Shown piece after piece: positions 27,257 through 60,200 of a stretch of 64,000 nt of DNA. Numbering within the stretch: position 1 is the stretch's first letter; each line of letters opens with the position of its first letter. The position numbers and the translations under genes are program-made. The stretch comes from a virus. Its lineage: Duplodnaviria; Heunggongvirae; Uroviricota; Caudoviricetes. The notes beneath the pieces were generated by a model that saw only the letters and a program-made list of their open reading frames with translations, made no database searches and was not told the DNA's origin. The DNA is taken from the IMG/VR virus record IMGVR_UViG_3300005253_000053; one strand, given 5' to 3'.

Positions 27257-27295
27257 GGCGACAGTATAACAGAGCCAAAAATTTCAGAAAAGGGG
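27257..27295 (-). promoter_or_regulatory. class B-like promoter (TATACT-N6-ATG)
   Basis: mRNA-sense GAAATTTTTGGCTCTGTTATACTGTCGCCATG. Confidence 0.45.
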
Positions 27296-27548
27296 TGTCC
27301 CGGAATTTGTAAGACAGCCTGAGCCAACATGTTACAGAATTTCGACGCGGATTATTTCGGAATCGCTGAAATCTTTGACCTGGGAATTTCCCAGGTGCCT
27401 GGACGCGCTTGAGGAGTAAGTAAAGCGATAGGGGCGACAAAGACCTTATTTACCTTGTCAACTAAGTTGAATCCTGGACAGGACTTGCGCCCACGAAAAG
27501 ATACGGTAAGGTCTTTACGCCACTTGGGGCCTTAACTGCGCCTCTTTC

Positions 27549-27905
27549 TCAGGCCGTCTGGCGGACACGTTCGACCAGGAAGTTCAGGACGCGCAGGAAG
27601 CCCGCCATGTCGGTCCCGGCCGGGTTTGGACCCTGGGACGGCGGCAGCATCTCGCGCGCCACGTTCAGGCAGACGCGCTTCATCTCCTGAACTGCTACGC
27701 CCTGCATCTCAGCCTTCAGCGGGCCGAGCGCCTCCTCCAACGAGTCGAGGTTGACCTGGGCTTCGTCCCGATCCTGGTCCGCCCCGTAAGCGTACAAGAA
27801 CAGTTGGTCAAGCAGATCCTCACCATCGGCCATTGCCATGGTCGGCCGCTCGGCTTCGTCGAAGAACTCTTCGATGCGCTCTTTCGTTGCGTCGTCAATA
27901 GGCAT
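27549..27905 (-). CDS. hypothetical acidic protein
   Basis: 118 aa. 12-bp palindrome TGTGCATGCACA about 45 nt upstream. Confidence 0.45.
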   Translation of the reverse strand: MPIDDATKERIEEFFDEAERPTMAMADGEDLLDQLFLYAYGADQDRDEAQVNLDSLEEALGPLKAEMQGVAVQEMKRVCLNVAREMLPPSQGPNPAGTDMAGFLRVLNFLVERVRQTA

Positions 27906-28446
27906 TGGACTCTACACTCCCTGCCTCAGGTCGAGGCACTTTTTTGTGCATGCACAAATGAATGTCCCTGATCGCCCTTCCGCTGGTCTCGGGGTACGCC
28001 ATCGGAAGGACGCGCCTAACTTCCTCCTCTAACTTTTGTTGCCCTGGCTCACTATCCACGTGGATGGCGTACTCCAACCACGTTCCGTCTTCCCATAAGA
28101 CGTAGAAACGTGCAAGGGTGTAACTCTCTTTGCCAATAGCCTGACCTGGAGGTGGGCCAAGAATCCAGGTGATCGCAGTATTATTTAACTTTGATCGCGT
28201 GCACACTCGTGTCTTTCCTTGGTGTACCGCATTCCACGTATTTGCAAGGTCAGGCAACCGCTTATGCGCGTCGTTGTACGGGTCTTCAACACCAGACTGC
28301 TTCATGTAGAACCCAAGCTCATTAGCCGTGGGAGGTGTTCTCCCCTCATCCATGTACTTGATCAGATACCCCAAAACGCGCGTGCACAAATCCGAAAGGT
28401 TTGGCAGAAGTTTCCGGTAAGCCTCAATGCTGGTCGGTTTAACCAC
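27895..28446 (-). CDS. hypothetical protein
   Basis: 183 aa. Confidence 0.45.
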   Translation of the reverse strand: MVKPTSIEAYRKLLPNLSDLCTRVLGYLIKYMDEGRTPPTANELGFYMKQSGVEDPYNDAHKRLPDLANTWNAVHQGKTRVCTRSKLNNTAITWILGPPPGQAIGKESYTLARFYVLWEDGTWLEYAIHVDSEPGQQKLEEEVRRVLPMAYPETSGRAIRDIHLCMHKKVPRPEAGSVESNAY

Positions 28447-28960
28447 GAGGCTCCCCGTTCGGCGTCTTGGTCAGATCAGGAATCATGTACGGGTTGATCC
28501 GGAACACGGACGTGTCGGCGAGGCCGAAGCGGACCTCCATGAGCGATTCGTTTTCCGGCGTGGGCTCTCCCGTCGTCGGCCGTAGCTGCCACCAGACCCG
28601 ATCCCAGTAGCTGCCGTACTGATCGTTGCCGCCCCACAGATCGTAGTGCCGGTTCCACAGCGCACCCATCCACATGTCGCGCATAGCTTCGTGACCGAAC
28701 GCTTCCTCGGCGTCGTGGTGACCGAAGACCGCGAGGATGAGCGCCTTGTTGTCGTGGAAGTTGTCAGACTCCACGATCCAGTAATTGTGCTGCCAGTCCA
28801 TCCCGTCGACCCAGACCTCGCCGTAGTAGCCACCCTCCGGGTGACCGAAGCGTGCGACCGGGACGGCCGGGTTCTCGCGCGCGAGCCCATTGTACTTTTC
28901 GTACGCGGCCTCGATGAGGTTGTAGCCGTTGGTGAAGTGTGTAGCGAATCTGACGAGCAT
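28439..28960 (-). CDS. hypothetical Trp/His-rich protein
   Basis: 173 aa. Class A motif 12 nt upstream, no SD. Confidence 0.5.
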   Translation of the reverse strand: MLVRFATHFTNGYNLIEAAYEKYNGLARENPAVPVARFGHPEGGYYGEVWVDGMDWQHNYWIVESDNFHDNKALILAVFGHHDAEEAFGHEAMRDMWMGALWNRHYDLWGGNDQYGSYWDRVWWQLRPTTGEPTPENESLMEVRFGLADTSVFRINPYMIPDLTKTPNGEPRG

Positions 28961-29003
28961 GTAAGAGTCCCTACCCGTGTTATCGGATTGGGAAGGCTAT
29001 TTC
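28961..29003 (-). promoter_or_regulatory. class A promoter motif (variant lacking motif ATG)
   Basis: plus: gtaagagtccctacccgtgttatcggattgggaaggctatttcagc. Confidence 0.5.
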
Positions 29004-29011
29004 AGCAATAA

Positions 29012-29449
29012 TTATTGGAGATTCCACGAAACGGCCCACCCGTCGCCCGGTTTGCCTTCTCCGTCGACTTCGTGGTAGCTGGTGGCCGGAATTTCGTCGA
29101 TACTCTCAAACGCGGTCGCGGAGGGCGTCCCAAAGGCCGAGACCAAGGCCCGGTACGACTTTTGAGACGTCACATCCGCTTCGACCGTCTTCACGCCCCA
29201 CTCTTTCAACGACTGGGCTGCTTTTTGGGCCAGGAGCGTACCGTAGCCCCGGCCGCGATGTGCGGGCTTCACAAAAAGGTTGCCCAGGTGGGATTTCGTG
29301 TCGTCGAGAGTCTCAGTCGTCACGTGGCCGACTTCTTCGCCCGCAAGGTAGGCGCGAAGAGTCAGACCGCCCCAGGGAGCCTTCATCACCTGGAAAGTGA
29401 GGCCCCGGGCTTCGTTGAGGACGGTTCGGATGGCGCGTCGGGAATCCAT
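29012..29449 (-). CDS. GNAT acetyltransferase with N-terminal MDxRRAIRxxLxE tag
   Basis: MDSRRAIRTVLNEA... N-terminus, then GNAT motif A HRGRGYGTLL. Confidence 0.65.
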   Translation of the reverse strand: MDSRRAIRTVLNEARGLTFQVMKAPWGGLTLRAYLAGEEVGHVTTETLDDTKSHLGNLFVKPAHRGRGYGTLLAQKAAQSLKEWGVKTVEADVTSQKSYRALVSAFGTPSATAFESIDEIPATSYHEVDGEGKPGDGWAVSWNLQ

Positions 29450-29495
29450 GGCGGAGAGTATACCCGGATCACCAGATCAGGTAAAATAGGTCCCA
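29450..29495 (-). promoter_or_regulatory. class B promoter (GGGTATACT-N7-ATG)
   Basis: mRNA-sense TTTTACCTGATCTGGTGATCCGGGTATACTCTCCGCCATG. Confidence 0.5.
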
Positions 29496-29512
29496 CCGAA
29501 TGGCGTCGTCAG

Positions 29513-31545: not shown

Positions 31546-31582
31546 GCCTATATTATCGGATTTGGGAGGCAAAATAGCCAAG
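31543..31582 (-). promoter_or_regulatory. class A promoter motif
   Basis: plus: catgcctatattatcggatttgggaggcaaaatagcc. Confidence 0.55.
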
Positions 31583-32381: not shown

Positions 32382-32418
32382 CATACCTGTGTTATCGGAT
32401 TGGGGCAGCTATATCTCT
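32382..32418 (-). promoter_or_regulatory. class A promoter motif
   Basis: plus: catacctgtgttatcggattggggcagctatatctc. Confidence 0.55.
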
Positions 32419-33116: not shown

Positions 33117-33130
33117 CAGGTTCTCCTATT

Positions 33131-33454: not shown

Positions 33455-33488
33455 ACCTATATTATCGGATTGCGGGGGCTGTTTCGGC
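33452..33488 (-). promoter_or_regulatory. class A promoter motif
   Basis: plus: catacctatattatcggattgcgggggctgtttcggc. Confidence 0.55.
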
Positions 33489-38229: not shown

Positions 38230-38262
38230 ACCCATGTTATCGGGACGGAGGGGCTATTCGGG
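38227..38262 (-). promoter_or_regulatory. class A promoter motif (degenerate)
   Basis: plus: catacccatgttatcgggacggaggggctattcggg. Confidence 0.45.
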
Positions 38263-39749: not shown

Positions 39750-40142
39750 TCAGCGCAACCTGCGCCCGGTGCCGCCACGGTCCAGTTCTCCCCAGGGGAA
39801 GTACCAGATCTCGAAGTCGTCCGGGAGGTGCTCCGCCAGCCGCTTCGCGACGTGATTTGCCTTCCGGGCGGCCATACGCTGCTCGAAAGCCCACGGCGTG
39901 AGGCTGGCCATGCGCTTCGTAACGTCGATGCGCCCGGCAAACTGCGGGGGTCCTTCCATGCCAACGTCGAGGTGGTAGGTGTCCGGATCGACACCTTCCT
40001 GGCTGGCGAAGCTGAACTGACCATCTGACCACTTCCAGGCGTCGAAGTCCTTGGAGCCGCTGCGGTAGTGGCCGATGTCGGTGTAGTGCTGAGGAGCGGC
40101 CTCGCAGAGCAGCTTACGGATGACTTGGCGGGTGGAGTCCAT
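39750..40142 (-). CDS. MDxTRxAIRxxLxE-tagged protein (candidate packaged internal protein)
   Basis: MDSTRQVIRKLLCEA... The C-terminal module (EGVDP..H....F.GR.D....AARKA..V.KRL...P....WYF) is shared with 40142..41107. Confidence 0.6.
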   Translation of the reverse strand: MDSTRQVIRKLLCEAAPQHYTDIGHYRSGSKDFDAWKWSDGQFSFASQEGVDPDTYHLDVGMEGPPQFAGRIDVTKRMASLTPWAFEQRMAARKANHVAKRLAEHLPDDFEIWYFPWGELDRGGTGRRLR

Positions 40143-41107
40143 CAGTACATTCTCTGCCCAGGCCTGCCGCGTTGCTGCCCGCTGAAGTACCAGACCGCCT
40201 CGACCTCGGGGAACCGGTCGACGAGCCGCTTCACGACGACCTTCGCTTTCCGTGCAGCGATGGGATTGTCGAGCAGGTCCCAGGCCGTGATGCTGGCCTC
40301 GCGCCGCTGAGGGTCGTAGCGTCCGCCGAAGTCAGGAGCGCCCTGAGTGTCGTAAATCAGGTTGTGGAACTTGTTCGGATCGACGCCTTCATCGCTGGCA
40401 ACGCGCAGCCGACCTTCGTCCCAGATCCACGCGTCGGTACCTTCGCCGTGGCCGACGGTGAGGTAGTTGGCGGGGGCTTCGTCCAGGACCGCCTCGGCCC
40501 GGACCAGGGATTTGTCCTGGATCTCGTAGCCCTCAACGGCACCGACGTTCGCATAGTCGAAGCCTTGCAGGACCGCAACTTTCTGTTCGGCGAACCGACC
40601 GTGGACGATGTAGTAGGCAGCCTGCCCAACGACCTCGGTGAACAGCGCAGGCCGGGCTTCCACGGTAGCCAGCTTGGCGTGCGTGTTGTACGCGGCGAGT
40701 TCCCCACGGAGTGTGAACGGCTGACCGCGGGCGATGTGCGTGAAGTAATCGTGGACGGTCCGGAATAGCAGATTGTCCTCGACGCTGAAGACCGGGTGCT
40801 CAGAATCTCCGCTGTAGATTTTTAGAACGCCTGTCTCGCGGAAGTCCCGCTGCATTTCTTCAGACGACTCGTACGGGTCCTCGTCCGTGTACTCGACACG
40901 GGACCGGCCCAGGAACCGGCGAAACAGAATTTTGTTGCTGCTGTTGAGCGCCTCCCAGTGGCGGGCCGCGTCCGGGTCGTAACTGGGAGCCTCCTCGTAG
41001 GCGTCAGCGACGAGCCGCGCGTACTCGTTAAAATCTTTAAGTTCGAGCTTCTCGCGCACGTCCGCTTCGAGAAGCAGCTTCCGGATGGCTGTGCGGGTAG
41101 CGTCCAT
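40142..41107 (-). CDS. MDxTRxAIRxxLxE-tagged protein, 321 aa
   Basis: MDATRTAIRKLLLEA... Its C-terminal ~70 aa are paralogous to 39750..40142. ATGA-coupled. Confidence 0.6.
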   Translation of the reverse strand: MDATRTAIRKLLLEADVREKLELKDFNEYARLVADAYEEAPSYDPDAARHWEALNSSNKILFRRFLGRSRVEYTDEDPYESSEEMQRDFRETGVLKIYSGDSEHPVFSVEDNLLFRTVHDYFTHIARGQPFTLRGELAAYNTHAKLATVEARPALFTEVVGQAAYYIVHGRFAEQKVAVLQGFDYANVGAVEGYEIQDKSLVRAEAVLDEAPANYLTVGHGEGTDAWIWDEGRLRVASDEGVDPNKFHNLIYDTQGAPDFGGRYDPQRREASITAWDLLDNPIAARKAKVVVKRLVDRFPEVEAVWYFSGQQRGRPGQRMY

Positions 41108-41481
41108 CAGATCTTCACGTCCTTCCGCAACGAAATGTGGACACCGGGGTTGATCTCGTCCAGCTTCAACCTGAGCTTGATGACCTCGACCTGATGCGGC
41201 CTGAGATTACGATCCCGCGCGGCGTAGAACGCGGCGTCCTTCGGGCTGTCAGCAACATACGTACCTGCCCGCAGAACGTCGTAATCACTGCGCTTCGGAC
41301 GACCGTGATACAGTTCGACGGTCCCATCGAGCAGGATCGGGATGCCGTGGCGCTCCAGGTACTCGCCTACGGTTTCCTTGCCGAGAACCGGGTGGTCGAG
41401 CCAGACGCGGTTCAGACCCCCCTCGTCGTCGGCATCAGCCTCGTAGAGGATCTTCCGGATGGCTTGGCGGGTGGCGTCCAT
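41107..41481 (-). CDS. MDxTRxAIRxxLxE-tagged protein, 124 aa
   Basis: MDATRQAIRKILYEA... Confidence 0.6.
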   Translation of the reverse strand: MDATRQAIRKILYEADADDEGGLNRVWLDHPVLGKETVGEYLERHGIPILLDGTVELYHGRPKRSDYDVLRAGTYVADSPKDAAFYAARDRNLRPHQVEVIKLRLKLDEINPGVHISLRKDVKI

Positions 41482-41957
41482 CAGCGGCCCTCGATCTTGT
41501 CCGCGACGTTCACCATCTGCGAGAGCATGTTCCGGTAGCCGCCGCCGTGTTCGATGTTGGGGACGTCCGCGCTGTGAACCGCATCGATCTCGGTCTCACC
41601 GCGCTGAAGCGCCTCAATCGCCCGGTGGTGACCGTCCAGTATGAACCAGGCAGCGCGCTTTTCGAGCTTGCTGACCAGGAGCGGACTCTTAGCAGCATGG
41701 TAGGATAACTCCCCTTTCTCGATTTCACTGAAGGTTTTATCAATCTTCGGTTCCCAGGCGTACAGGCTGCGCAGCCGGACGCGCCAGGGTTTTCCCTTGA
41801 TCGCGGCCTCAGCCAACAGACGCTTCACAAGATCGGGTGGGTAGCCCCGGTCAGAGCAGCCAGGAGGGGGTGCGGAGATCGAGCCGTCGCCGACCTGTTG
41901 GAAGACGCCGCGACCCTCGTTGAGGATGGAGCGAATGGCTTTGCGGGTGGGGTCCAT
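41481..41957 (-). CDS. MDxTRxAIRxxLxE-tagged ParB-like nuclease domain protein
   Basis: MDPTRKAIRSILNEG... plus AAWFILDGHHRAIEAL (ParB/Srx DGHHR motif). Confidence 0.65.
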   Translation of the reverse strand: MDPTRKAIRSILNEGRGVFQQVGDGSISAPPPGCSDRGYPPDLVKRLLAEAAIKGKPWRVRLRSLYAWEPKIDKTFSEIEKGELSYHAAKSPLLVSKLEKRAAWFILDGHHRAIEALQRGETEIDAVHSADVPNIEHGGGYRNMLSQMVNVADKIEGR

Positions 41958-42026: not shown

Positions 42027-42464
42027 TCAGTCTTCCTTGCCACCGCATACGAGGGCGTTGTAGGTCAGCGCCACAGTCAGCAGGTTGTTGTGCTCGTAGG
42101 ACAGCTTGGGGATCTCCAGCGACCGGAGGGTCATCTGCGGCTCGCCGTCGATGTAGAGCATCCATCGGCCGGTGCGCACCGGCTCCCAGTCCGGGGAGTC
42201 CGGGCTGGTCTCGATGAGGTCGTTGCCGTCCCGGTCGAGGAACTTCAGCACCATCTCGGGGACACGGCTCAGCAGGATCTGCCGGAACGAGACGGGCACC
42301 TCGAAGGCGACCCCCTCGTCGCGCATGTACTGGAGGACTTTCTCAGTGGCCTCTTCACCGATCCGGTCAGCGAGGTTCTGCGCCCACGGGTGGTCCATGG
42401 TCATCAGGTCGTAGGGCGCAGCGTCGAGGATCTGGAAGACGTTGCTGGGCTTCGGGAAGGGCAT
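42027..42464 (-). CDS. hypothetical protein
   Basis: 145 aa. Confidence 0.5.
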   Translation of the reverse strand: MPFPKPSNVFQILDAAPYDLMTMDHPWAQNLADRIGEEATEKVLQYMRDEGVAFEVPVSFRQILLSRVPEMVLKFLDRDGNDLIETSPDSPDWEPVRTGRWMLYIDGEPQMTLRSLEIPKLSYEHNNLLTVALTYNALVCGGKED

Positions 42465-42530
42465 GGCAGGTCTCCTGGTAGGTGGCAGATAGTATACCCG
42501 ACCACCGGACAGGAGGCCAACAGTCAGATA

Positions 42531-45020: not shown

Positions 45021-45283
45021 CAGGAGTTCTCCTCGATCTCGGCAATGCGCTCCCAGACCCAGTCGGCGTGACAATGATGGGTCGTGTGCGGTCCGGTCAC
45101 GTGGTAGCGCCGCCCATGCTCATGGATCTTCTGGCCCGGCTCTCGCCCTTTGGCCTCCCGGCACCGCTTACACAGGCGGGCGGCGGGACGCTTCAGTTCA
45201 TCAATCCGAACCCGCGTCTCAAGCAACCTGTCCCGCTCCGCTTGGTTCGCCTCGTCTTGTTCTGCGCGCAGGTCAACCACCAT
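45020..45283 (-). CDS. small Cys/His-rich protein
   Basis: 87 aa, CKRC..HHCH. Confidence 0.4.
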   Translation of the reverse strand: MVVDLRAEQDEANQAERDRLLETRVRIDELKRPAARLCKRCREAKGREPGQKIHEHGRRYHVTGPHTTHHCHADWVWERIAEIEENS

Positions 45284-45879: not shown

Positions 45880-46091
45880 TCAGGCCTCCTGGACCCCTGA
45901 CCGAAGCCCTTCTCCGGCTCGGCCCCTTCCGCGTGGAAAGTGTGGTCCTGGCGAATCGCGGCAGGCAGGACCACGGTGGAGAGCCACTTGATGGCGTCTG
46001 CGACCGCGCGAGCGTGGCCATGGTCCATGGCCGAGAACGTCTCCTTGCGCTGCGGAAAGCTGCCCATTGTCTCGATTTTGATCAGACCCAT
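45876..46091 (-). CDS. hypothetical small protein
   Basis: 71 aa. Confidence 0.35.
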   Translation of the reverse strand: MGLIKIETMGSFPQRKETFSAMDHGHARAVADAIKWLSTVVLPAAIRQDHTFHAEGAEPEKGFGQGSRRPD

Positions 46092-46608: not shown

Positions 46609-46645
46609 AACAGTATTATCGGATCGGGGCGGCTATTTAGCCAAG
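46606..46645 (-). promoter_or_regulatory. class A promoter motif (canonical: TTGGCT-N18-GATAAT-N6-ATG)
   Basis: plus: cataacagtattatcggatcggggcggctatttagccaa. Confidence 0.55.
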
Positions 46646-46650: not shown

Positions 46651-48564
46651 TTATCCGGCAGCGTTTAACCGCTCAACCGCCTTGGAGAACGCAAGAACAC
46701 GTAAGTAGGTAGTGTCTCTCACTTTTCCTGAAATCGCCTCGATGATCTTTTTTGCAGTACACTCGGCGATCCTGGCCCCTCTGGACAGTTCCTTCACAGA
46801 GTATCCCGCACACAGCGAGCGCATCACATGCGTGTCGACGAACACGGGAAGGTCCTCCCAGTGCCGGAGGCATACCTGCATCAGCATCCGCTTAAACAAA
46901 TCCTTTTCCACACTGACCTGGGCACGCGCTATGCCGGAGACAAGCGCGCTGCCCTTCCGAGCCCTAGGTTGCCGTGGGCGATTTACCTTCGGACGCTTGA
47001 CCACGCGAGTCCTCGCCTCTTTCAAGGCCTCGGCCGCTTGCGTGATCTGATCAGCCCAGTGCTGCCGAACCCGACGGCCGGGCTTGTCCAAGTCGTAGAG
47101 GTACTCGTAAATGGTGTACCGTTTCATCCCGGTCACTTCCGCTACAACGCTGGCGGCCATCCCTCGAATCAGTGGCGCAATCTCCGAGAGCAGCACCGAC
47201 CGTATAGGATTACAACGCAGTTGTACTTCCCGAGCCACCTTCGCTGCACAAGCACCCACGCAGTACCGGGACCGCCAGTTGAGCGGGAGGTCCGCCTTGC
47301 AGACGCAACACGCACGATAAGCCAGGGGCAGGTCTGGGCGAACGGTACCAAAAGCTGCCTGACTCACACGAACAATTCCCACGCTGACCTCGGCCACAAC
47401 CTTTTGCTGCGTCTGCCCGGCGGCGTAGCGTTCGCGGATATCGCGGATGAGATCGTCATCGTCGAACCAATCCGGCTTTGGCTCTCGCAGCAACGCCTGT
47501 AACCGATACCGCTCCTTCTGCTTGGCTTCTACGAATTTCTCCAAACATTTCGTAGAACAATAAACCCAGCGACTGGGCGGCAAAGGAGACTTCCCACACT
47601 GCTTACATACGGTGCCAACCTGACTTTCCTTCCGCTCCTTCTTTAGCTCCCTCGACCGCCGAACCCCAGCGACCGCGCGCACCTGGGCGTGTCCCGCCGC
47701 GACACACTCACCCGTACAGTACTTGATGTACTTTCTTGGTCTTCCGAATCGGACGTAGAAGCGGTTGCATTTCGCACACCGTGGAGCGACCCGACCGCGA
47801 CGCGTTCGCTGCTTCTTGCTTGGTGTAACCGGTTTATTGCCTATGAGGAAGTTTGCCGCATCTGCCTGCATTCCGTCGTAAGCGACGTCCAGCGCGGCTT
47901 TGCGAAGACGCACGCGCATAGCCTTCTGCCCACAGCCCCTACGCTGCGTCGAGCTTGGGCAGAACAGGGGCAGCTTGCCACCCTTCGGCGGTCGGCGAGC
48001 TTTGAATGTTTTTTCACAGTGCGCACAGACGATACTGATTGCACGAAGCGGGATCAGGGGAAGGTGCTTGTACGTCTTTCCAACCGCGACAGCGTATACC
48101 GATGCCGAGCAGACATCGAACTCCTCGGCCAGGGAATAGGATGTCTGACCATCCGCCCAACGATCCCGGACTTCCATTACCTCGGCGTCGCTAAACAGTC
48201 CTCTACTGCCCCGACGACTCCGCCCTCTCGGGATAGTCCTTGCCCGGACGTCGTTTTCTATGGCACGCGCCTTACGGATTGCATACTTGGACGCGGCCTC
48301 ACCGATCTGAGGGTACAGCGCCCGGTAGCTCCGCTTCTTAACGACGTCTTTGCAGGCGTCGTCACAGTACTGCTGATTGTAATTCTCGGCGTAAAAAGGC
48401 CCCTCGCAGGCGTTACACTCTCGGGCAGTGTCCCAGGCCCAGGTCTTACCCCGCAAAATATTACCGACGCAGGACTTATCTACGCTGTACGTCTTCGCAA
48501 TACGTGCCCGGCTCCACCCCTGCCGGGCGCGCTTCCGAATCAGATCCGCCCGGCGGCGAGTCAT
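46651..48564 (-). CDS. multi-HTH / multi-zinc-finger DNA-binding protein
   Basis: Three repeats of R(W/Y)A.GQT...(I/V)A......V....V (HTH-like). More than six CxxC pairs. Start set at MTRRRADLIRK (ATGA-coupled). Confidence 0.5.
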   Translation of the reverse strand: MTRRRADLIRKRARQGWSRARIAKTYSVDKSCVGNILRGKTWAWDTARECNACEGPFYAENYNQQYCDDACKDVVKKRSYRALYPQIGEAASKYAIRKARAIENDVRARTIPRGRSRRGSRGLFSDAEVMEVRDRWADGQTSYSLAEEFDVCSASVYAVAVGKTYKHLPLIPLRAISIVCAHCEKTFKARRPPKGGKLPLFCPSSTQRRGCGQKAMRVRLRKAALDVAYDGMQADAANFLIGNKPVTPSKKQRTRRGRVAPRCAKCNRFYVRFGRPRKYIKYCTGECVAAGHAQVRAVAGVRRSRELKKERKESQVGTVCKQCGKSPLPPSRWVYCSTKCLEKFVEAKQKERYRLQALLREPKPDWFDDDDLIRDIRERYAAGQTQQKVVAEVSVGIVRVSQAAFGTVRPDLPLAYRACCVCKADLPLNWRSRYCVGACAAKVAREVQLRCNPIRSVLLSEIAPLIRGMAASVVAEVTGMKRYTIYEYLYDLDKPGRRVRQHWADQITQAAEALKEARTRVVKRPKVNRPRQPRARKGSALVSGIARAQVSVEKDLFKRMLMQVCLRHWEDLPVFVDTHVMRSLCAGYSVKELSRGARIAECTAKKIIEAISGKVRDTTYLRVLAFSKAVERLNAAG

Positions 48565-49202
48565 CTTTTGCGTTTTTTGCTTGCCTTGGTGCGCAATAGC
48601 TGTTGGATCTTCTTGATCACGGTGCCCCGAGTGACGCGGTACCGCGTTCCGGTCGACATAATGGCCCATACGACGCCCTTGTCATCCAGTTCCGCGTCCG
48701 CGACGAACGGGACGGTCTTGCGGGTCCGGTTGAGCGGCAGCTTCGGCCTAGTGAACCCGAGCGCATCCGACAGAGGACGCGGGTCGGCGATCTCCAGGGC
48801 TTTGTCGATGGCCTTGTCGATCTTGACCCGGGTGATGCCGCCCTGGTTCTGCTTGACCCGCAGCATGTTCAGGTAGCTCGCACCGATCCCGCGCATCATG
48901 GCCACCTTGAGCGACTTGTCGGGCAGGTTCCCCCGGCCGACTTCGAGCATCACCTTGAGGTGCTCCAGGCTGCGGAACAGGACGCCGTGCTCGACGAGGC
49001 AGCGGTCCGTGAACTTGACGAACTCCTCGGGGGGCAGCTTATCAGACACTTCGACCATGATGTACGAGACCTCCAGAAGGAAGTCGGACTCGGCCTCCCC
49101 GTACTGGTCGATGATGCGCATCGCGGCGGCTGCGGACTTGACTGCGCGGATCTCCTTCATCGTGGTGTAGGACAGCTTGCGGCGCGTTTTAACTTTGGGC
49201 AC
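48561..49202 (-). CDS. hypothetical basic protein
   Basis: 213 aa. Confidence 0.5.
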   Translation of the reverse strand: MPKVKTRRKLSYTTMKEIRAVKSAAAAMRIIDQYGEAESDFLLEVSYIMVEVSDKLPPEEFVKFTDRCLVEHGVLFRSLEHLKVMLEVGRGNLPDKSLKVAMMRGIGASYLNMLRVKQNQGGITRVKIDKAIDKALEIADPRPLSDALGFTRPKLPLNRTRKTVPFVADAELDDKGVVWAIMSTGTRYRVTRGTVIKKIQQLLRTKASKKRKR

Positions 49203-49635: not shown

Positions 49636-49671
49636 AATAGTACTATCGGATTCGGACAGCTATTTGGTCAG
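49633..49671 (-). promoter_or_regulatory. class A promoter motif
   Basis: plus: cataatagtactatcggattcggacagctatttggtca. Confidence 0.55.
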
Positions 49672-51414: not shown

Positions 51415-51451
51415 AACAGTGTTATCGGATCGGGACGGCTATTTGGTCAGA
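51412..51451 (-). promoter_or_regulatory. class A promoter motif
   Basis: plus: cataacagtgttatcggatcgggacggctatttggtca. Confidence 0.55.
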
Positions 51452-51487: not shown

Positions 51488-51823
51488 TTAGTTGCCCCTC
51501 GTACGCGGCTGCCGCGTCTCGGGGTCCATCTCGTACGTCATCACTTCGTTGCAGAAAGTAATCGTCCCGCCGCCAGACAGTTTGCCGTCCCACACCTTGC
51601 CCCACGTCTCGTCTTCCCGCGAGCCAGTGATTGTGACACGGAACCCTACGTGTTCGCCTTCAGCGAGAACCCATGATGCCCCCGTCCAGTCTACACCTTC
51701 CGCCGGTTCCGCAACCCGCTGTCCCAGCGGATAACACAGCACCGTCTTGTTGCTAGGCATGGGAGTCTCGTCTTCAGGAGCCTCAGTGAGGAGGTGTCGG
51801 AGAGCTTTGCGGGTCTGATCCAT
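51488..51823 (-). CDS. MDxTRxAIRxxLxE-tagged protein, 111 aa
   Basis: MDQTRKALRHLLTEA... The track ORF extends upstream through the promoter. Confidence 0.6.
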   Translation of the reverse strand: MDQTRKALRHLLTEAPEDETPMPSNKTVLCYPLGQRVAEPAEGVDWTGASWVLAEGEHVGFRVTITGSREDETWGKVWDGKLSGGGTITFCNEVMTYEMDPETRQPRTRGN

Positions 51824-51885
51824 GGGCAGCAGTATACCTGGATATTCGAGGATTGCGAAATTGAAACGGGCAAAAATTTTGTGTG
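51824..51885 (-). promoter_or_regulatory. class B promoter (GGTATACT-N7-ATG) with upstream AAAATTTT element
   Basis: mRNA-sense CACACAAAATTTTTGCCCGTTTCAATTTCGCAATCCTCGAATATCCAGGTATACTGCTGCCCATG. Confidence 0.5.
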
Positions 51886-52376: not shown

Positions 52377-52410
52377 AACAGTATTATTGGATCGGAAGGC
52401 CTGTTTACCC
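52374..52410 (-). promoter_or_regulatory. class A promoter motif (GTG variant)
   Basis: plus: cacaacagtattattggatcggaaggcctgtttaccc. Confidence 0.45.
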
Positions 52411-52917
52411 AAGGAAATCCGACTCGGGAAACCTCTTCGCGCGTCGCATGAGAGCCTCAGGCGTCATCCGGGGGTGCATCAGGTCGGTGACATCGACCTT
52501 GATGGCCTCCCGCTGATCCCAGACGTCGAGGTAGACCGTGTCGCCCAGCGTCAGGCCGGGCAGCAGGACGCGCAGGCGATTCAGAACCTCGGAGTCGAGC
52601 GTGGGCACCGTAATCCCGTCGTCGTAGCCGCGAATCCAGCCGTGTTCTAGCGCTTCGGCCTCAACCCGTTGGCGGTCGTGGGGATCGTCGGAAACCGTGC
52701 TCACCTCGTCCAGCAACTCCTCGATGCCCGGGTCGCCAGGGTACATCTCAGGAAAGCGCCTCAAGGCCTCAGCGGCGTGCGTCGTCCAGCCACTCCCAGT
52801 CCAGCCACTCCCAATGTTGATGTACTCGCCGTCGGGCAGGAGCCACCAGCGGCCCAGCCATGTGGACTCGCGGGCCTCGGTGAGGATGGAACGGATGGCG
52901 TGACGGGTGGAATCCAT
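52405..52917 (-). CDS. MDxTRxAIRxxLxE-tagged protein, paralog of 52917..53441
   Basis: MDSTRHAIRSILTEA... WWLLPDGEYINIGSGW and HGWIRGYDDG blocks shared with the neighbour. Confidence 0.6.
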   Translation of the reverse strand: MDSTRHAIRSILTEARESTWLGRWWLLPDGEYINIGSGWTGSGWTTHAAEALRRFPEMYPGDPGIEELLDEVSTVSDDPHDRQRVEAEALEHGWIRGYDDGITVPTLDSEVLNRLRVLLPGLTLGDTVYLDVWDQREAIKVDVTDLMHPRMTPEALMRRAKRFPESDFLG

Positions 52918-53441
52918 TAGGCCTGCCGCGTGACTTGGGCAGGATGCTTTGCCAGCAGAACCGTCTCCACATCGGCGTACATGTACCCACTGCCATATTC
53001 GAGCAGGATTTTGCCCTTCGTGGCACCCCGGTCGAGCAGGAACGTCTGTATACGCCTCAGCGACTCAGCATCGAACTCCAGCATGTCGAAGCCGCCGGTA
53101 TCGGTTACACGAATCCAGCCATCCCGGATCGCCACCTGCTCAGGGTTGTTCATGTAGCGCGCGACGAAGTCAGGCTTCTTGGCGTACTCCCGAGCAATAT
53201 CGGCGTGGACGTCGTACCAGGGGCCGTCGAAGGTCTCGTCCATGATGTCCTGCTCAGAGGCCGACAGGAACCCCCAGTCGATCTCAGCAGCGACGGCCAG
53301 AGCAGCCGCCTCGTGATTCCAGCCACTGTCTTCAACAGTCACAACCTCGCCATCAGGCAGAATCCAGTAATCAGCACGGAGCACGTCGGCAGCATCGGAC
53401 TCAGTGAGCAGCTTTCGGATGGCGTGACGGGTCTGATCCAT
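52917..53441 (-). CDS. MDxTRxAIRxxLxE-tagged protein, paralog of 52405..52917
   Basis: MDQTRHAIRKLLTES... YWILPDGEVVTVEDSGW, DGWIRVTDTG. Confidence 0.6.
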   Translation of the reverse strand: MDQTRHAIRKLLTESDAADVLRADYWILPDGEVVTVEDSGWNHEAAALAVAAEIDWGFLSASEQDIMDETFDGPWYDVHADIAREYAKKPDFVARYMNNPEQVAIRDGWIRVTDTGGFDMLEFDAESLRRIQTFLLDRGATKGKILLEYGSGYMYADVETVLLAKHPAQVTRQA

Positions 53442-53505
53442 GGCGAAAACATCATATCAGGGAATCCGGGGATCTCGAAATTGAAACGGCCCAAAATTTT
53501 GTGTG
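53442..53505 (-). promoter_or_regulatory. class B promoter variant (TATGAT-N9-ATG) with AAAATTTT element
   Basis: mRNA-sense GAACACACAAAATTTTGGGCCGTTTCAATTTCGAGATCCCCGGATTCCCTGATATGATGTTTTCGCCATG. Confidence 0.45.
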
Positions 53506-54041: not shown

Positions 54042-54076
54042 TAACAGTATTATCGGCCTGCGAGGGCAATTTGGGC
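54039..54076 (-). promoter_or_regulatory. class A promoter motif
   Basis: plus: cataacagtattatcggcctgcgagggcaatttgggc. Confidence 0.5.
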
Positions 54077-54085
54077 AGGTGAAAA

Positions 54086-54811
54086 TCAGGAAACCAGGAT
54101 CTTAATGCCCAGCCCGGCCTCCAGCTTCTCAACGGTAGAGCGACGAACAGCCTTCTTGCTCTGATAGAATATGTGATAGATCGTGTCTTCCGGCACGCCA
54201 CAAGTCCGCGCAGTCTCGGCCAGATTTCGATCACGCAGAACTTCTCGGACGACCTCAACTGGAACGTTGCGGCCTGCATCCGGACGTGGCATGTCCTCGG
54301 AGGCGTGACGTTTTCCATGACAGTCGGAGCAGAGCCAAAGCACATCCAGGCGACGGCTGTAGTCCTCGTGGTGAGCCTCCAGCCGCCCATCGGCACCACA
54401 CTCCGAACAGCAGTCCGGTTTGACCATACGGCCACGCAGAACAGCGCTCTCAACCGCACTGCGCGCCAGATAGCGGTCACGGTGCTTGGCATACGAACGG
54501 TTCCTGTACTCGCGTTGCTGCTTGTTGATGTGCTCTCGATTATTCGTGGCGTAGGCCTTCGCAGAAGAATTACGACAGTCCCGGCACTGATTCGCGAGAC
54601 CGTCGGCCTTCTTTCGATTTCGATGGTGGGCAGAGATGGGTTGGGTCTGGCGGCACTTCGAGCAACGCTTTACAGCCACGTCCTTACAGTGCGGACACAA
54701 AGTCAGGCCCTCGTCTATCGCATCAGCGAGACGTATGATCCTTGGCTCAGCCATGCAGCTTGCGATCACGTGGTAGTGCTCGTCTTGGCCAGCGAAGTAG
54801 GAAATAAGCAT
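54086..54811 (-). CDS. HNH endonuclease with zinc-binding cysteines
   Basis: CRDCRNSSAKAYATNNREHINKQQREYR and GRLEAHHEDYSRRLDVLWLCSDCHGKRH (HNH H-N-H), plus CPHC/CSKC pairs. Confidence 0.7.
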   Translation of the reverse strand: MLISYFAGQDEHYHVIASCMAEPRIIRLADAIDEGLTLCPHCKDVAVKRCSKCRQTQPISAHHRNRKKADGLANQCRDCRNSSAKAYATNNREHINKQQREYRNRSYAKHRDRYLARSAVESAVLRGRMVKPDCCSECGADGRLEAHHEDYSRRLDVLWLCSDCHGKRHASEDMPRPDAGRNVPVEVVREVLRDRNLAETARTCGVPEDTIYHIFYQSKKAVRRSTVEKLEAGLGIKILVS

Positions 54812-54895
54812 AATGTATCCTCAAAACGTATCTTCTCCAACGTACCAGGAAATTAGGCGATTTCAAAGAGTAAAGGTGAAAAATTTCTGTGTGTT
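54812..54895 (-). promoter_or_regulatory. class B-related upstream region with AAAAATTTC element
   Basis: mRNA-sense GAACACACAGAAATTTTTCACC...TTGAGGATACATTATG, shared with the 51.8 and 53.5 kb copies. Confidence 0.35.
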
Positions 54896-54920
54896 CGCCT
54901 GGGCCACCCCCACCCACCCC

Positions 54921-54964
54921 CTTTCTATCCCACAGGGGACCCCTGATATCCAAGGGATAGAAAG
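54921..54964. repeat. perfect 11-bp inverted repeat with 22-nt spacer
   Basis: CTTTCTATCCC-acaggggacccctgatatccaa-GGGATAGAAAG, with an internal GGGGACCCC palindrome. Confidence 0.5.
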
Positions 54965-55124
54965 GACCCCCCTCCCAGGGGCCGGTGTACCGGCCTGGGG
55001 CGTCACTGGGCTGCCCACCGGCCCGCAGAGCGGGCTTGTGGGTCACAGGTGGCTGGGAGTGAGCGACAACAGGTGTTGAGGTGCACAGGTGAGCGGCAAC
55101 GATGTTCCACGGGGAACAAAGCGG

Positions 55125-55154
55125 CCCCTGATTGCGAGACATGGCAATCAGGGG
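55125..55154. repeat. perfect 11-bp inverted repeat
   Basis: CCCCTGATTGC-gagacatg-GCAATCAGGGG. Confidence 0.45.
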
Positions 55155-55476
55155 CCGCTGGTGTATTGAGGCCGGAAGGCCGAGGTCAGACCACAGCCCT
55201 CCGGCTGGACAGGACCTGCTCGTCTCTGGTGGACGGGTGCAGGAGCTTGGGCTCACTCTACCTCTGGCTGATGGGCGTGTCAACCCTAGCGTTGGGCTGG
55301 CAGTCAGGCTGGCTGACCGAATAGAACCCCTCCGTTGATAGCGCTTCGCTAGGCCTCTCTTATAGAGAGAGTCTAGCGAGAGGCTGTACCCAGATAAAGA
55401 TCATCCAGCGCTCCTTAGCTCTTGACAGACAGAGCCACAGAGTATAAGCTCCCTGAACCAGTTACGGAGAGCCAGA

Positions 55477-56004
55477 ATGGAAGAGCAGTGGAGGGTTATC
55501 CCCAGCGTCCCGTACTACGAGATCAGCGACCATGGTAGGGTTAGACGACTGGTGCCAGCTATTGGTACCTGGGTTGGCAGGGTCAAGACACCCTACGTCA
55601 CAGCCAACGGCTACCTGAAGATCTCGTTGTCCGTGGACAAGAAGAGGTTCCAGCGCTTCGTCCACAGGTTGGTGGCAGAGGCGTTCATCGGTCCGATCCC
55701 AGACCTGCACCACGTCCATCACCTGGACCACGACAAGCAGAACAACCGGGCCACGAACCTGGAATGCCTGTCCCGCCGCCAGAACCAGCAGCTTACCCAC
55801 ACCACGCCGGTCAAGCGCAGCGCCATGGGCGGCATCCCTGAGATGCTGGTCCAGGCCTGGGCCAGGGGCTGGATGTTATGCGACGTGGCCGCTCAGCTTG
55901 AAGTGGACGAGGCACAGCTTAGCCGCTGGCTGCTACGGGAGGAGCTACCCAACGGTCGGCAGGCTGAGATCAGCCAGCGCCTGTGGTCGCTCGTGATAGG
56001 CTAG
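55477..56004 (+). CDS. HNH homing-endonuclease-like protein (NUMOD4-type N-terminus)
   Basis: WRVIPSVPYYEISDHGRVRRL (NUMOD4-like), HRLVAEAFIGPIPDLHHVHHLDHDKQNN (HNH). Confidence 0.75.
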   Translation: MEEQWRVIPSVPYYEISDHGRVRRLVPAIGTWVGRVKTPYVTANGYLKISLSVDKKRFQRFVHRLVAEAFIGPIPDLHHVHHLDHDKQNNRATNLECLSRRQNQQLTHTTPVKRSAMGGIPEMLVQAWARGWMLCDVAAQLEVDEAQLSRWLLREELPNGRQAEISQRLWSLVIG

Positions 56005-57984: not shown

Positions 57985-59019
57985 ATGACCAAAAAGCCGT
58001 CCGAATCCGATAATACCTGTATGACCACCGCAGCGACCACCGACGTAGACACGCTCTTCAACCGGTTCGCCAAGATGGCCTCGGACACGTTCAAGCCCAC
58101 CGGCCTGTACCCGGACAGTGCAGTGCTGTCGATGCTTCAGCGGGCTGAGGTGTTCTGCTTCCCCTCCATGCTCACCGCTGAAGAGAGGCCCGAAAGCGCC
58201 ACGATCCTGAAGACTCGCCTGCCCCATAAGGCCTGTGCTATGGTCTCCCCTCGGGCAGTCACAGTGTTCGGTGGTCAAACCTTACACCACGGTCGCCAAG
58301 GCATCGATATCGATACAATCGAGAACCTGGACTCAGCGTGGGGTGCTAGGCTCAAGCGAATCGCTGACAGTACGCAAACAGATCTCAACACGAGTCTCGA
58401 CAGCGTAAAGCTCTGGACAGGGTTCGACTCTGTCGTCATGTACTACCCGGGCGAGAAGACGAGTGGCGACCTGTTGGCCTACGGGTGGGCGTTGCTGGTT
58501 GAGGACGACACCAGTGGTGGTGCAACGAGGATAATCATGCCGCCAAAAGTGGTGATCATGCGTACCGGCAGGAAGCCCGAGCTACTGGTGAGCGACAGGC
58601 AGGACCACGGGATGTCTCATCAGGACGTTAAACTCGTGATAGAGAGCATGGAGCGCCACGCCATGATCGGTATGGGAGAGGTGGCTGTAGCCTCCGCTCC
58701 AATCAGTCGTGTCGTCCTGCGGGAACGTCCTGTCAAGAAGCCCAAGCGTCCTAGCCGGTACATCGGCCGGGTGGGCGAGAAGCCGAGGACCATCCTCATC
58801 GATCCCAGTAACCGTGAGTCCATTCAATACGTTGGTTTGGGTGGGCATCGTGGTCCGCTGCTCGAAGGCCACAAGCGCCGTGGCCACCACCGGACTTACC
58901 GGTCTGAGCGCTATAAGAAGATGCGGGGCAAAACCGCCTGGGTAAAGCCGACGTGGATCGGACCCCGAAACTGGACGGACCATGGACGCGTCTACATCGT
59001 ACAGGTAGTAGGAGGATGA
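57985..59019 (+). CDS. hypothetical protein
   Basis: Start set at MTKKPSESD (GGGAGGA 5 nt upstream), 344 aa. Confidence 0.5.
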   Translation: MTKKPSESDNTCMTTAATTDVDTLFNRFAKMASDTFKPTGLYPDSAVLSMLQRAEVFCFPSMLTAEERPESATILKTRLPHKACAMVSPRAVTVFGGQTLHHGRQGIDIDTIENLDSAWGARLKRIADSTQTDLNTSLDSVKLWTGFDSVVMYYPGEKTSGDLLAYGWALLVEDDTSGGATRIIMPPKVVIMRTGRKPELLVSDRQDHGMSHQDVKLVIESMERHAMIGMGEVAVASAPISRVVLRERPVKKPKRPSRYIGRVGEKPRTILIDPSNRESIQYVGLGGHRGPLLEGHKRRGHHRTYRSERYKKMRGKTAWVKPTWIGPRNWTDHGRVYIVQVVGG

Positions 59020-59023
59020 CAAC

Positions 59024-59326
59024 GTGACTGAGATCAACTGGCGTAGTGCCGACGAGCACATGATTGCTGATGTGGATGACGTGAAGCTGACCGCCTACAA
59101 CCCTATCAACCAGTCTGCCTGGAACGTGGTGGCCAAGCGCCCCGCGTTCGAGGTCGACTACGATGATGTGAAGCGGCAGAGGATTCAGGAAGTCGAAGTC
59201 ACGATGAAGGTCGTTGCTCAGGGTGCCGACACCGAGTCCCTGAACAGTGTGGGGCAGCGGGCTCTGGATGCTCTGGAAGGGATGCGCCGCCGTCTGGAGA
59301 CCGATGTTACTACGGTAGGCGTGTGA
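59024..59326 (+). CDS. hypothetical small protein
   Basis: GTG start with GGAGGA 8 nt upstream, 100 aa. Confidence 0.45.
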   Translation: MTEINWRSADEHMIADVDDVKLTAYNPINQSAWNVVAKRPAFEVDYDDVKRQRIQEVEVTMKVVAQGADTESLNSVGQRALDALEGMRRRLETDVTTVGV

Positions 59327-59342
59327 GGGTCAGAGGCGGGTA

Positions 59343-59756
59343 CTACCGGCCAGTAACTACGTAGCGGCTCTTGAGTTCGTCCCCGTCAACACTGGGATGG
59401 CTGTAGTAGACGCCTCCCTCGGAGGTGTACAGATCCACGTCGAGGGTACTGGTGAACTGGTCTACCGTAGGATCTAGGATGTGACTGCCGACGATCACCC
59501 ATGTGTGGTCCCACTCCTCAAGCTCCTCGAATCCGGGCCGGTCTCCTGTGACTGTGATGAACTGGCCGCCTTGGATCTTTGCCTGGATTCCTTTGGCGCG
59601 GAGAAGTTTGACGAGTCCCTCGGCGGTCTCGCTGCAATCCCCGAACTGGGCAACGTCGCACACGAACTGCTTACGGGCCTGCTTGGCAAGATCAATGGTG
59701 GCGTCCGTGATCGACTCAGTGAGCATCCTGCGTATGACTGTTCTGGTGGAGTCCAT
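59343..59756 (-). CDS. MDxTRxAIRxxLxE-tagged protein, 137 aa
   Basis: MDSTRTVIRRMLTES... ATGA-coupled to the upstream family member. Confidence 0.55.
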   Translation of the reverse strand: MDSTRTVIRRMLTESITDATIDLAKQARKQFVCDVAQFGDCSETAEGLVKLLRAKGIQAKIQGGQFITVTGDRPGFEELEEWDHTWVIVGSHILDPTVDQFTSTLDVDLYTSEGGVYYSHPSVDGDELKSRYVVTGR

Positions 59757-60148
59757 CACATGGCTCTCAACTTCTCAATGAACTCTACGACTTCCAGGTC
59801 TGCGAATTCCCTGTCCTGAAGCCACTCGTACGTGTCGCAGGGGACCTCGTAAGCCATAATGGACCGCGCACCCGACATCATTCTGGCAATCAGCCTGTGG
59901 TGTCCGTCCAGGAGTTTGCCGCACGCGATCCAGATCGGCGGAATGTCTTTGGCCTGCCGGAGCGCCGCGATCTTCTCCGGGTCCTGGTGTAGCTCGTAGG
60001 TCAGTATCTGCCTTGGGTCCTCTTCAACCAATTCGGCGGTCAGGTCGATCCCGGCTGCGCGGGCTTCGTCAACGACCTCCCGTTCCCAGTCCTTGAGAGG
60101 GTCGGCCTCGGTGAGCATCCTGCGTATGGCTGTTCTGGTTGGGTCCAC
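59756..60148 (-). CDS. MDxTRxAIRxxLxE-tagged ParB-like nuclease domain protein
   Basis: (GTG)DPTRTAIRRMLTEA... plus ACGKLLDGHHRLIARM (DGHHR). Leaderless GTG 7 nt after TATACT. Confidence 0.6.
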   Translation of the reverse strand: MDPTRTAIRRMLTEADPLKDWEREVVDEARAAGIDLTAELVEEDPRQILTYELHQDPEKIAALRQAKDIPPIWIACGKLLDGHHRLIARMMSGARSIMAYEVPCDTYEWLQDREFADLEVVEFIEKLRAM

Positions 60149-60200
60149 GGCAGGCAGTATACCCGGTGGGCCTCAGCATGGCGAGTAGAGCCTCTTAGGT
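60149..60200 (-). promoter_or_regulatory. class B promoter (GGGTATACT-N7-GTG)
   Basis: mRNA-sense GCTTGACTCACCTAAGAGG...CCACCGGGTATACTGCCTGCCGTG. Confidence 0.45.

Follow-up and report, generated by a model that had tools for sequence, protein, structure and literature searches.

Start-codon-proximal -10 hexamers ahead of genes with a putative capsid-targeting tag in an uncultured marine-sediment phage

The window analyzed here is a 64,000-nucleotide (nt) stretch of a phage genome (IMG/VR virus record IMGVR_UViG_3300005253_000053), and the subject is a set of seven sites, termed class B, at which a -10-type hexamer, most often TATACT, is placed shortly ahead of a gene. Class B sites are probably two-element promoters of the sigma-70 type, composed of a strong -10 hexamer, a G resembling that of extended -10 promoters and a weak -35 hexamer. 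Five of them stand against start codons that have no Shine-Dalgarno (SD) site, and the units headed by class B sites contain every gene found to carry a shared N-terminal peptide (the tag), for which a role in capsid targeting is well supported by analogy with phage T4.

Class B sites and their start codons

The preliminary description of this DNA had listed six such elements, and all of them were found where it placed them, on the minus strand; a seventh had been overlooked. The general formula given there, GGTATACT-N7-ATG, holds exactly for two copies. These are promoter 2 (29447..29485; TTTACC as -35, 17 nt, GGG-TATACT at 29457-29462, N7, ATG at 29449), in which the formula spans 29447-29464, and promoter 4 (51821..51885; CACAC-AAAATTTTT at 51872-51880, TTCGCA, 17 nt, AGG-TATACT at 51831-51836, N7, ATG at 51823), in which it spans 51821-51838. 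The other copies deviate. Promoter 7 (60146..60184; TCGCCA, 17 nt, GGG-TATACT at 60156-60161, N7) precedes a leaderless GTG start at 60148 with two tagged genes downstream, and promoter 1 (27254..27291; weak -35 TTTTCT, 17 nt, TGT-TATACT at 27263-27268) reads GTTATACT-N6-ATG, with the ATG at 27256. Promoter 5 (53439..53505) comprises CACAC-AAAATTTT (53493-53500), TTCGAG/TCGAGA, 16-17 nt, TGA-TATGAT (53451-53456) and N9 before the ATG at 53441. The variant site (54809..54893) comprises CACACAG-AAATTTTT (54879-54886), TTGAAA (54861-54866), 16 nt and TGG-TACGTT (54839-54844), followed by a leader of about 21 nt with a GAGGA SD site, an ATG at 54811 and an untagged gene.

The overlooked site, promoter 3 (42462..42520; TTGGCC, 18 nt, GGG-TATACT at 42491-42496), contains GGTATACT at 42491-42498 and continues with ATCTGCC and a predicted +1 A at 42483, 7 nt downstream and in a CTGCC-A context like that of the leaderless copies. 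A 19-nt leader with AGGAG runs from 42483 to the ATG at 42464 (gene 42027-42464), and the site heads an operon, 42464->39750, with four tagged genes inside. Across the seven sites, the hexamer is TATACT five times, TATGAT once and TACGTT once.

The octamer GGTATACT occurs four times in the window against 0.30 expected, a number reached by 0 of 100 shuffles, and all four copies are intergenic and on the gene strand. TATACT was found seven times on the gene strand and not once on the opposite strand; after four of the seven, ATG or GTG follows at N6-7, compared with a background of 5.8% (p = 3e-4).

When the seven sites were aligned on the -10 hexamer, all had A as its second base and T as its sixth. 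At least four of six matches to TTGACA at a distance of 16-18 nt were present in six of the seven sites, against 9.3% at random positions in the window (binomial p = 4e-6). The four GGTATACT sites, together with the TATGAT site, were also called sigma-70-like by an independent consensus scan. The base at -14 is G in 7/7 sites (p = 3e-4); the complete TGn extended -10 motif was present in three, T(-15) being missing in the other four. Upstream of -15, visual comparison of the aligned sites revealed no motif common to all of them.

The surroundings of the start point were also uniform. All five leaderless sites, as well as the predicted start of the leadered 42491 site, have C at -1 and A or G at +1, and a purine preceded by a pyrimidine lies 7-8 nt past the hexamer in six sites (27268, 29462, 42496, 51836, 54844 and 60161). 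In the 53456 copy, the A of the start codon is the tenth base past the hexamer. No SD site was present within 20 nt of the five leaderless starts, compared with its presence at 52 of 105 genes; these five have the -10 at N6-9 (N6-7, with one copy at N9), and the 42496 and 54844 sites are leadered and carry SD sites. GCC or CCC directly precedes the start codon in all leaderless copies. Because of this -10-to-start geometry, RNA polymerase would be expected to start at the start codon or no more than 3 nt from it. The designation of these elements as leaderless promoters, made in the preliminary description, is supported by the -10 spacing, the missing SD sites, the -35 matches, G(-14), the C(-1)/purine +1 pair and the architecture of two relatives, loci L006 and L007 (see below).

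It was also considered that these words mark no promoter at all and that the palindromic GTATAC core is a restriction or methylation site, a protein-binding site or an RNA-processing site in intergenic DNA. GTATAC is slightly over-represented (7 copies against 2.8 expected; 1 of 100 shuffles reaches 7), as such a site might be. However, neither the 27263 copy nor the L007 copy contains GTATAC, and the 7:0 strand bias, the fixed distance to the start codon, the -35 hexamers and G(-14) would be unexpected for a symmetric site, so that this account is highly improbable. An archaeal TATA box was rejected by inference as well: the element lies at -13 to -8 and not at about -26, and the phage has SD sites and intrinsic terminators.

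Several observations weigh against the reading of class B as sigma-70-type leaderless promoters. The -35 matches are weak (4-5 of 6 positions), and one site has 3 of 6. The 9-nt gap of the TATGAT copy may give a leader of 2-3 nt and not a truly leaderless RNA. The sites are also partly paralogous, and the counts and p-values given here therefore overstate their independence; the 51.8-kb and 53.5-kb copies have an upstream block in common and identical first five codons (ATGGATCAGACCCG).

Relatives of the phage and the tagged genes

The window has about 60% G+C, and nearly all of its genes are on the minus strand. Its genes include those for a T4-type major capsid protein (Pfam Gp23, 7e-43), a prohead protease of 868 amino acids (aa) at 6811..9417 (minus strand; phrog_207, weak Peptidase_S77), sugar-modifying enzymes and homing endonucleases, besides numerous small open reading frames (ORFs). 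Among the 105 window proteins, one matched Pfam Acb2_Tad1_hairpin, the fold of anti-CBASS/Thoeris sponges (3.6e-9), and further Pfam matches were to NUDIX, AdoMet decarboxylase (19135-19563, plus strand), WbqC and DNA polymerase beta thumb. Rfam and tRNA scans gave no matches.

The protein encoded at 40142-41107 (321 aa) is 100% identical to LCGC14_0163390 [marine sediment metagenome], located on a 224.8-kb contig, and near-identical contigs are present in the estuary-sediment runs SRR1555743 and SRR1555744. No close relatives were found in the cultured-phage and IMG/VR collections by DNA, by an 852-aa protein or by capsid-protein patterns, and the capsid protein shares only 26-30% identity with its best cultured-phage matches. 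The phage is an uncultured huge phage of a marine-sediment lineage.

Pattern scans with tag-based DNA (viral_contigs and metagenome_contigs) and with the promoter block of a second family, class A (metagenome, genome and viral collections), gave 0 matches. Footprinting was therefore confined to two diverged loci, L006 and L007, with L001 and L002 added for the head module. L006 was the sole relative returned by a homologue search with the 173-aa protein encoded at 28439-28960; it originates from a different metagenome, has 82-90% nt identity and spans two class B sites. At the 29.4-kb site, GGTATACT-N7-ATGGAT is intact, seven spacer bases and the upstream sequence are changed, and the upstream gene extends to within 4 nt of the motif. 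At the 27.2-kb site, ATTTTTGGCyCTGTTATACTG is retained and the discriminator is rewritten, with N6 becoming N7. About 110 nt upstream of this class B site in the window lies a perfect 17-bp palindrome, CCTGGGAAATTCCCAGG (27379-27395), which is nearly conserved in L006 amid diverged intergenic DNA and may be an operator or a hairpin.

The more distant L007 has TTGACC-N18-GGG-TAGAAT-N8-ATG before a tagged gene starting MDRTRHVMRRILL, which is followed, with an ATGA overlap, by a second tagged gene. As judged by these alignments, the architecture of GG, -10, about 7 nt, GCC and ATG-tag is conserved and the hexamer word is not. Because the hexamer differs (TAGAAT in L007) and the architecture is kept, the -10 would be a generic sigma-70 element and TATACT no special word. 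In L008 (35% GC) and L009, two distant loci with phrog_3170 genes, -10-adjacent starts were not clearly seen, which indicates that the leaderless arrangement is not general to the phrog_3170 protein family.

The tag, MDxTRxAIRxxLxE, is an N-terminal peptide of 13-15 residues that always ends in (L/I)xE. Ten clear copies and one degenerate copy occur within 34 kb on unrelated protein bodies, and their codons are closely alike at the DNA level. All of these genes are on the minus strand. The degenerate N-terminus, MRITRGKLYKALRE, belongs to the first gene of unit 1 (26978..27256; 92 aa, Gly-rich, leaderless), where an indel of 9 nt relative to L006 keeps the frame and so supports coding. The second unit has one leaderless tagged gene (29012..29449; MDSRRAIRTVLNEA) with a GNAT acetyltransferase as cargo, the GNAT Pfam match being obtained with the L006 orthologue. 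The unit of promoter 3 consists of one untagged gene and then four consecutive tagged genes (39750..41957; starts 41957, 41481, 41107 and 40142). One tagged gene (MDQTRKALRHLLTEA; 51488..51823) follows promoter 4, two follow promoter 5 (52405..53441, namely 52917-53441 and 52405-52917, with starts 53441 and 52917), and two follow promoter 7 (59343..60148; starts GTG 60148 and ATG 59756).

Within operons, most tagged genes begin in an overlap, TGATG or TAATG, with the stop codon before them and have no SD site, so that tagged units are largely SD-free; the starts at 41481, 41107 and 40142 all have the TGATG form. The 41957 gene does not fit the promoter reading, as it has no SD site, no stop/start overlap and no convincing promoter, and follows a 69-nt gap. 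Long chains of SD-less genes with TGATG/ATGA overlaps were observed at 39750-41481 and 43639-46091 (minus strand), which suggests heavy coupling by termination-reinitiation.

In total, 11/11 tagged genes lie in units, six in number, that class B sites head, and 0/11 class A promoters precede a tagged gene (Fisher p = 4e-4; p = 2.5e-3 when only first genes are counted). The earlier statement that four of the six listed copies directly precede tagged genes was correct, the gene at 27256 being tag-like in addition, and the enrichment is stronger than had been claimed. In the 10 kb past the right end of the window, three class A copies were present, with no TATACT and no tag. The association of class B with the tag is real but partly inflated by paralogy.

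The extent of this paralogy raises the question of whether the copies are alike mostly by inheritance. In that case, a compact cassette of promoter, ATG and tag was duplicated onto new cargo, class B would be a paralogous family of one ordinary promoter with no functional distinctness, and common descent would account for the upstream block. The identical first codons of the 51.8-kb and 53.5-kb copies, the GCC/CCC before the start codon in all leaderless copies, the similarity of the tag codons in DNA and the location of all three CACACA-A/T-tract copies within 3.1 kb would be expected from it. However, the divergence between the 51.8-kb and 53.5-kb copies is patterned, the block and -35 region being near-identical and the spacer and discriminator scrambled. 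Four other sites have no common sequence upstream of -15, yet the -10, G(-14) and spacing are retained in them; L006 and L007 hold the architecture despite different flanks, and operon-internal tags were duplicated without a promoter. Inheritance as the main explanation is a minority possibility.

As to the function of the tag, homologues of the 321-aa tagged protein (phrog_3170 domain) have similar N-termini, for example MTRDTIKKLLNE and MTDARAVIRRMLTE (P0056 and P0072), and in L009 the gene of one such homologue is located between Peptidase_S77 and Gp23. In T4, proteases of the gp21 family cut after Glu, and head proteins carry N-terminal targeting propeptides of 10-20 residues (PMC5694885); the T4 internal proteins are diverse and share only their capsid-targeting sequence (PMC3012670). 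The earlier suggestion of a capsid-targeting peptide agrees with the (L/I)xE ends, the S77 protease, the N-termini of the homologues and the gene placement in L009. By analogy, the tag is well supported as a T4-style capsid-targeting sequence, with predicted removal by the S77 prohead protease encoded at 6811..9417, and the tagged proteins look like a large family of capsid-targeted and probably injected proteins.

Upstream A/T block and other promoter groups

The shared upstream block that had been reported for three copies was confirmed (51.8, 53.5 and 54.9 kb). Its A-tract/T-tract junction, described earlier as palindromic, is a near-palindrome, and a perfect palindrome, CAAAATTTTG, is present only in the 53.5-kb copy. 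The consensus of these neighbouring copies is CACACA(A/G)AAATTTT..TTTC..TTTCG. With +1 set at the ATG at 51823, AAAATTTTT of the 51836 site occupies -57 to -49, its AAAA filling -57 to -54 and its TTTTT -53 to -49. Relative to the -10, the block has an unchanged position in the 53456 copy and is displaced by 1 nt in the 54844 copy; it is present in three of the seven sites. Non-coding DNA makes up about 11.5% of the window, and A/T runs of 8 nt or more show a strong concentration there.

The consensus UP element extends as -59 NNAAAWWTWTTTTNNAAAANNN -38, written out as -59 NNAAA(A/T)(A/T)T(A/T)TTTTNNAAAANNN -38, with the A-tract at -57 to -54 and the T-tract at -53 to -47 (PMC5664571). The block matches 9 of 11 positions of its distal subsite in exact register. 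In class A promoters, with +1 again set at the ATG, AAAA lies at -44 to -41, which is the register of the proximal subsite. Because two independent registers fit one assumed start point, both the leaderless start and a UP-like role of the block are modestly supported. Two points weigh on the other side, namely the derivation of the consensus from E. coli and the conserved CACACA located 5' of the A/T tract, which a UP element does not explain.

The preliminary description had proposed bent DNA or a regulator site. In this reading, AAAATTTTT / CAAAATTTTG would serve a dimeric phage regulator as its operator or form a stretch of intrinsically bent DNA, and the word recognized by the putative phage protein would be CACACAAAATTTT. 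The block is near-palindromic, with one perfect copy, the CACACA flank is outside the UP consensus, and a related CACAAAATTA adjoins the -35 of two class A promoters, which suggests one word used in two registers. On the other hand, the palindrome is imperfect in two of three copies, the A-tracts match both UP subsites in both registers when +1 is the start codon, and no DNA-binding regulator was identified among the window proteins. The regulator site, kept in play by the single perfect palindrome and the unexplained CACACA, is unlikely; a UP-like distal subsite in canonical register fits better. The block is most likely a UP-element-like distal subsite that would recruit the C-terminal domain of the alpha subunit.

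The window contains 11 copies of class A, of which one is on the plus strand, and three further copies lie just outside it. Its module of about 45 nt reads A/T tract - cTTGnc - ccAAATAGCCnnCCCnATCC - GATAAY - N6 - ATG. The minus-strand copies are located at 24886-24895, 28977-28986, 31550-31559, 32389-32398, 33459-33468, 38234-38243, 46613-46622, 49640-49649, 51419-51428 and 54047-54056, and the plus-strand copy at 58007-58016. Those outside the window are L010 1240, 4360 (-) and 4411 (+), two of which form a divergent, back-to-back pair at a gene-cluster boundary. Class A is set apart from class B by GATAAY, by C at -14 and by its conserved spacer; the unusual conservation of this 18-20-nt spacer suggests a bound regulator or special recognition.

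Nearly all class A copies are leaderless, and in nearly all of them the ATG lies exactly 6 nt past the hexamer. It fits a gene start in 10 of the 11 window copies, the exception being that at 24893, which does not share the reading frame of the called ORF. The 28986 copy departs from the pattern by its leader of about 20 nt, of which 13-14 nt would be transcribed. The -10-N6-ATG rule shifts starts downstream of those of the longest ORF at 26924, 31543, 33452, 38229 and 54040 (minus strand) and at 58021 (plus strand), for example from TTG 31572 to ATG 31543 (MKITKPK) and from TTG 54069 to ATG 54040 (MDVPLD). Standard gene callers will mis-start such genes.

A third group of promoters has consensus -35 hexamers (TTGACA, TTGACT and TTGACG), weaker -10s and long SD-bearing leaders, and it includes those of the portal-like and capsid genes. 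The portal-like gene is preceded by TTGACA-N18-GG-CATACT (16468..16497, minus strand) and a leader of about 45 nt with GGAGG; the promoter is kept in L001, and the leader has diverged. For the capsid gene, the upstream TTGACT is conserved in L001 and L002. In this capsid gene leader (6780-6810, minus strand), TTGACT, located about 150 nt upstream, overlaps a hairpin, GACTCCC-TGAG-GGGAGTC, that is conserved in three phages (window, L001 and L002), with a compensatory-looking change in L002. Since TTGACT and the hairpin are conserved at this distance in three phages, the capsid gene has a long conserved leader.

The preliminary description had also listed elements similar to class B upstream of head-module genes. 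The CATACT before 16418 is part of the conserved portal promoter just described, and the other two were rejected as promoters. GATATACT at 14788 encodes Asp-Ile-Leu within a gene and is synonymously changed in L002, and CTACACT before the capsid gene is conserved in neither L001 nor L002. Sigma-70-like matches in the head region numbered 10, against 3.4 +/- 1.8 expected. Because of this enrichment and of the consensus -35s at the portal and capsid genes, the structural genes appear to have no T4-style late promoter. The exact T4 late promoter word, TATAAATA, is absent from the window. Class B as a T4-type late promoter was rejected on the same absence, on the presence of -35-like hexamers and on the lack of a sigma-like Pfam domain in the window.

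Close to the variant class B site, about 350 nt without an ORF (54905-55283, minus strand) lie downstream of a strong sigma-70-like promoter, TTGACA-17-TAGAGT (55283-55255). The segment folds with a minimum free energy of -186 kcal/mol (z = -5.5 against shuffles), contains terminator-like hairpins, has no Rfam match and may be a structured non-coding RNA. It neighbours an HNH/NUMOD4 homing endonuclease gene (55477-56004, plus strand). Together with a second HNH-type homing endonuclease gene (46651-48669, minus strand; 672 aa, low coding score), this gene breaks up an otherwise compact gene array.

Proposed expression, timing and known systems

Class B sites are likely sigma-70-family promoters with a near-consensus -10 that would form an expression module for packaged proteins. 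A holoenzyme of the sigma-A type would bind the -10 hexamer and G(-14), aided by the weak -35, and in three copies contact of the alpha C-terminal domain with the A/T block would compensate for that weakness. Transcription would begin at the start codon and yield an mRNA with 5'-AUG or 5'-GUG, translated without an SD site. Most downstream tagged genes would be translated by termination-reinitiation, with the 41957 gene as the exception. The N-terminal peptide would carry the products into the prohead, where the S77 protease would then remove it. Host sigma-A holoenzyme would be the most economical reader of these promoters.

A leaderless gene would be silent on read-through transcripts, and each such gene would therefore need a private promoter. 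Since it would be translated only from its own transcript, its output would follow its own promoter even without intergenic terminators. The dense interleaving of class A and class B promoters without terminators would be explained by this need.

It may instead be asked whether class B is a dedicated late or middle class, read with the help of a phage sigma factor or activator, or favoured once -35-dependent transcription is disabled, and co-timed with head assembly. Capsid-targeted cargo must be present when proheads form, and class B contrasts systematically with class A, whose divergent pair at a cluster boundary is typical of early regions. G(-14)/G(-13) and a YATNCT-like -10 are common to class B and the conserved portal promoter, and the phages phiYS40 (PMC3594737) and P23-45 (PMC7403470) provide precedents. 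Against such a class speaks the significant presence of -35-like hexamers, in contrast to late classes independent of a -35; furthermore, TATAAATA is absent from the window, and a tagged gene of L007 uses TAGAAT with a strong TTGACC -35, which points to a generic -10 word. The search for a phage-encoded sigma factor or activator, proposed in the preliminary description, yielded no Pfam sigma, RNA polymerase, AsiA or gp39-like domain among the 105 window proteins; as a point on the opposite side, the search for sigma factors covered about 74 kb, the genome being at least 225 kb long. A dedicated late class is accordingly held to be doubtful, and host-type sigma-70 promoters remain the preferred reading.

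A broader scheme, offered tentatively and itself rather improbable, would combine two leaderless systems: class A, which would depend on the -35 and a conserved spacer, and class B, extended -10-like and reserved for capsid-targeted effectors. Through a putative phage factor, RNA polymerase would pass from A to B, possibly together with leaderless translation, so that SD-less packaged proteins would be made only at prohead assembly. If this switch were true, the phage would possess a promoter-plus-tag cassette system for loading the virion with a variety of enzymes, GNAT acetyltransferases among them. If the A/B distinction is temporal, the idea of timing by leaderless and extended -10 promoters, taken from phiYS40 and P23-45, would reach a new lineage, and compact promoter-tag cassettes for packaging foreign proteins would become conceivable. 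Independently of timing, a simple sequence rule (-10 hexamer, 6-7 nt, start codon) serves to find the real starts of genes, and transcription units, in a clade of huge, uncultured sediment phages, and one promoter architecture is linked to a whole set of capsid-tagged, probably injected, proteins.

The placement of a -10 against an ORF to give leaderless mRNA is already known, as are leaderless mRNAs of phages, and the mechanism is textbook knowledge. Genes with an abutting -10 are established in Actinobacteria, among others, and a leaderless GTG start, as at 60148, fits leaderless-proficient hosts, as known from mycobacterial work. In Deinococcus-Thermus, a -10 (TANNNT) abutting the ORF drives leaderless mRNA, and a -35 at 17 bp enhances expression (PMC12340547). 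Like the leaderless genes of both groups, class B has its -10 a few bp upstream of an SD-less start; unlike them, it is found in a phage, with a near-invariant TATACT accompanied by G(-14), and is linked to a single protein family.

Most middle and late mRNAs of the Thermus phage phiYS40, a large myovirus, are leaderless and made from host-type promoters (PMC3594737). For phiYS40, both the timing and the 5' ends come from measurements, and a shift in IF2/IF3 has been reported, whereas class B was described from sequence. Another difference is that the portal and capsid genes of the present phage have long leaders with SD sites, the leaderless starts of classes A and B being located in the small-gene region. 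P23-45's middle and late promoters fall into the extended -10 class and evade the sigma-4 binder gp39 (PMC7403470). Class B resembles such promoters in the invariant G(-14), the TGn motif in 3/7 sites and the weak -35, and it differs from them in the absence of T(-15) in 4/7 sites, the enrichment of -35-like hexamers and the lack of a gp39/AsiA analogue in the window. With the distal subsite of the E. coli UP element, class B shares the four A residues at -57 to -54 and the T tract that begins at -53; unlike that element, it has no proximal A-tract and has a conserved CACACA flank, and the alpha subunit may differ.

With regard to T4, class B recalls late promoters in that the phage has a T4-type capsid protein and a conserved 8-bp word of the -10 region before genes of putative virion-associated proteins. 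It departs from T4 late promoters, which depend on gp55/gp33 and TATAAATA, in having -35-like elements, with neither TATAAATA nor a gp55-like protein in the window. The tag is closer to the T4 internal proteins and Alt, as in both cases a short N-terminal peptide ending at a Glu motif is placed on unrelated cargo and a gp21-family protease is present. The capsid-targeting peptide of T4 is MKTYQEFIAE; unlike it, the tag described here has the form MDxTRxAIRxxLxE, occurs in 11 copies within 34 kb, includes GNAT cargo and belongs to genes scattered outside the head module. New relative to these systems is the instance itself, a lineage of uncultured huge phages in which two families of leaderless promoters are sharply defined, one of them dedicated to capsid-tagged proteins.

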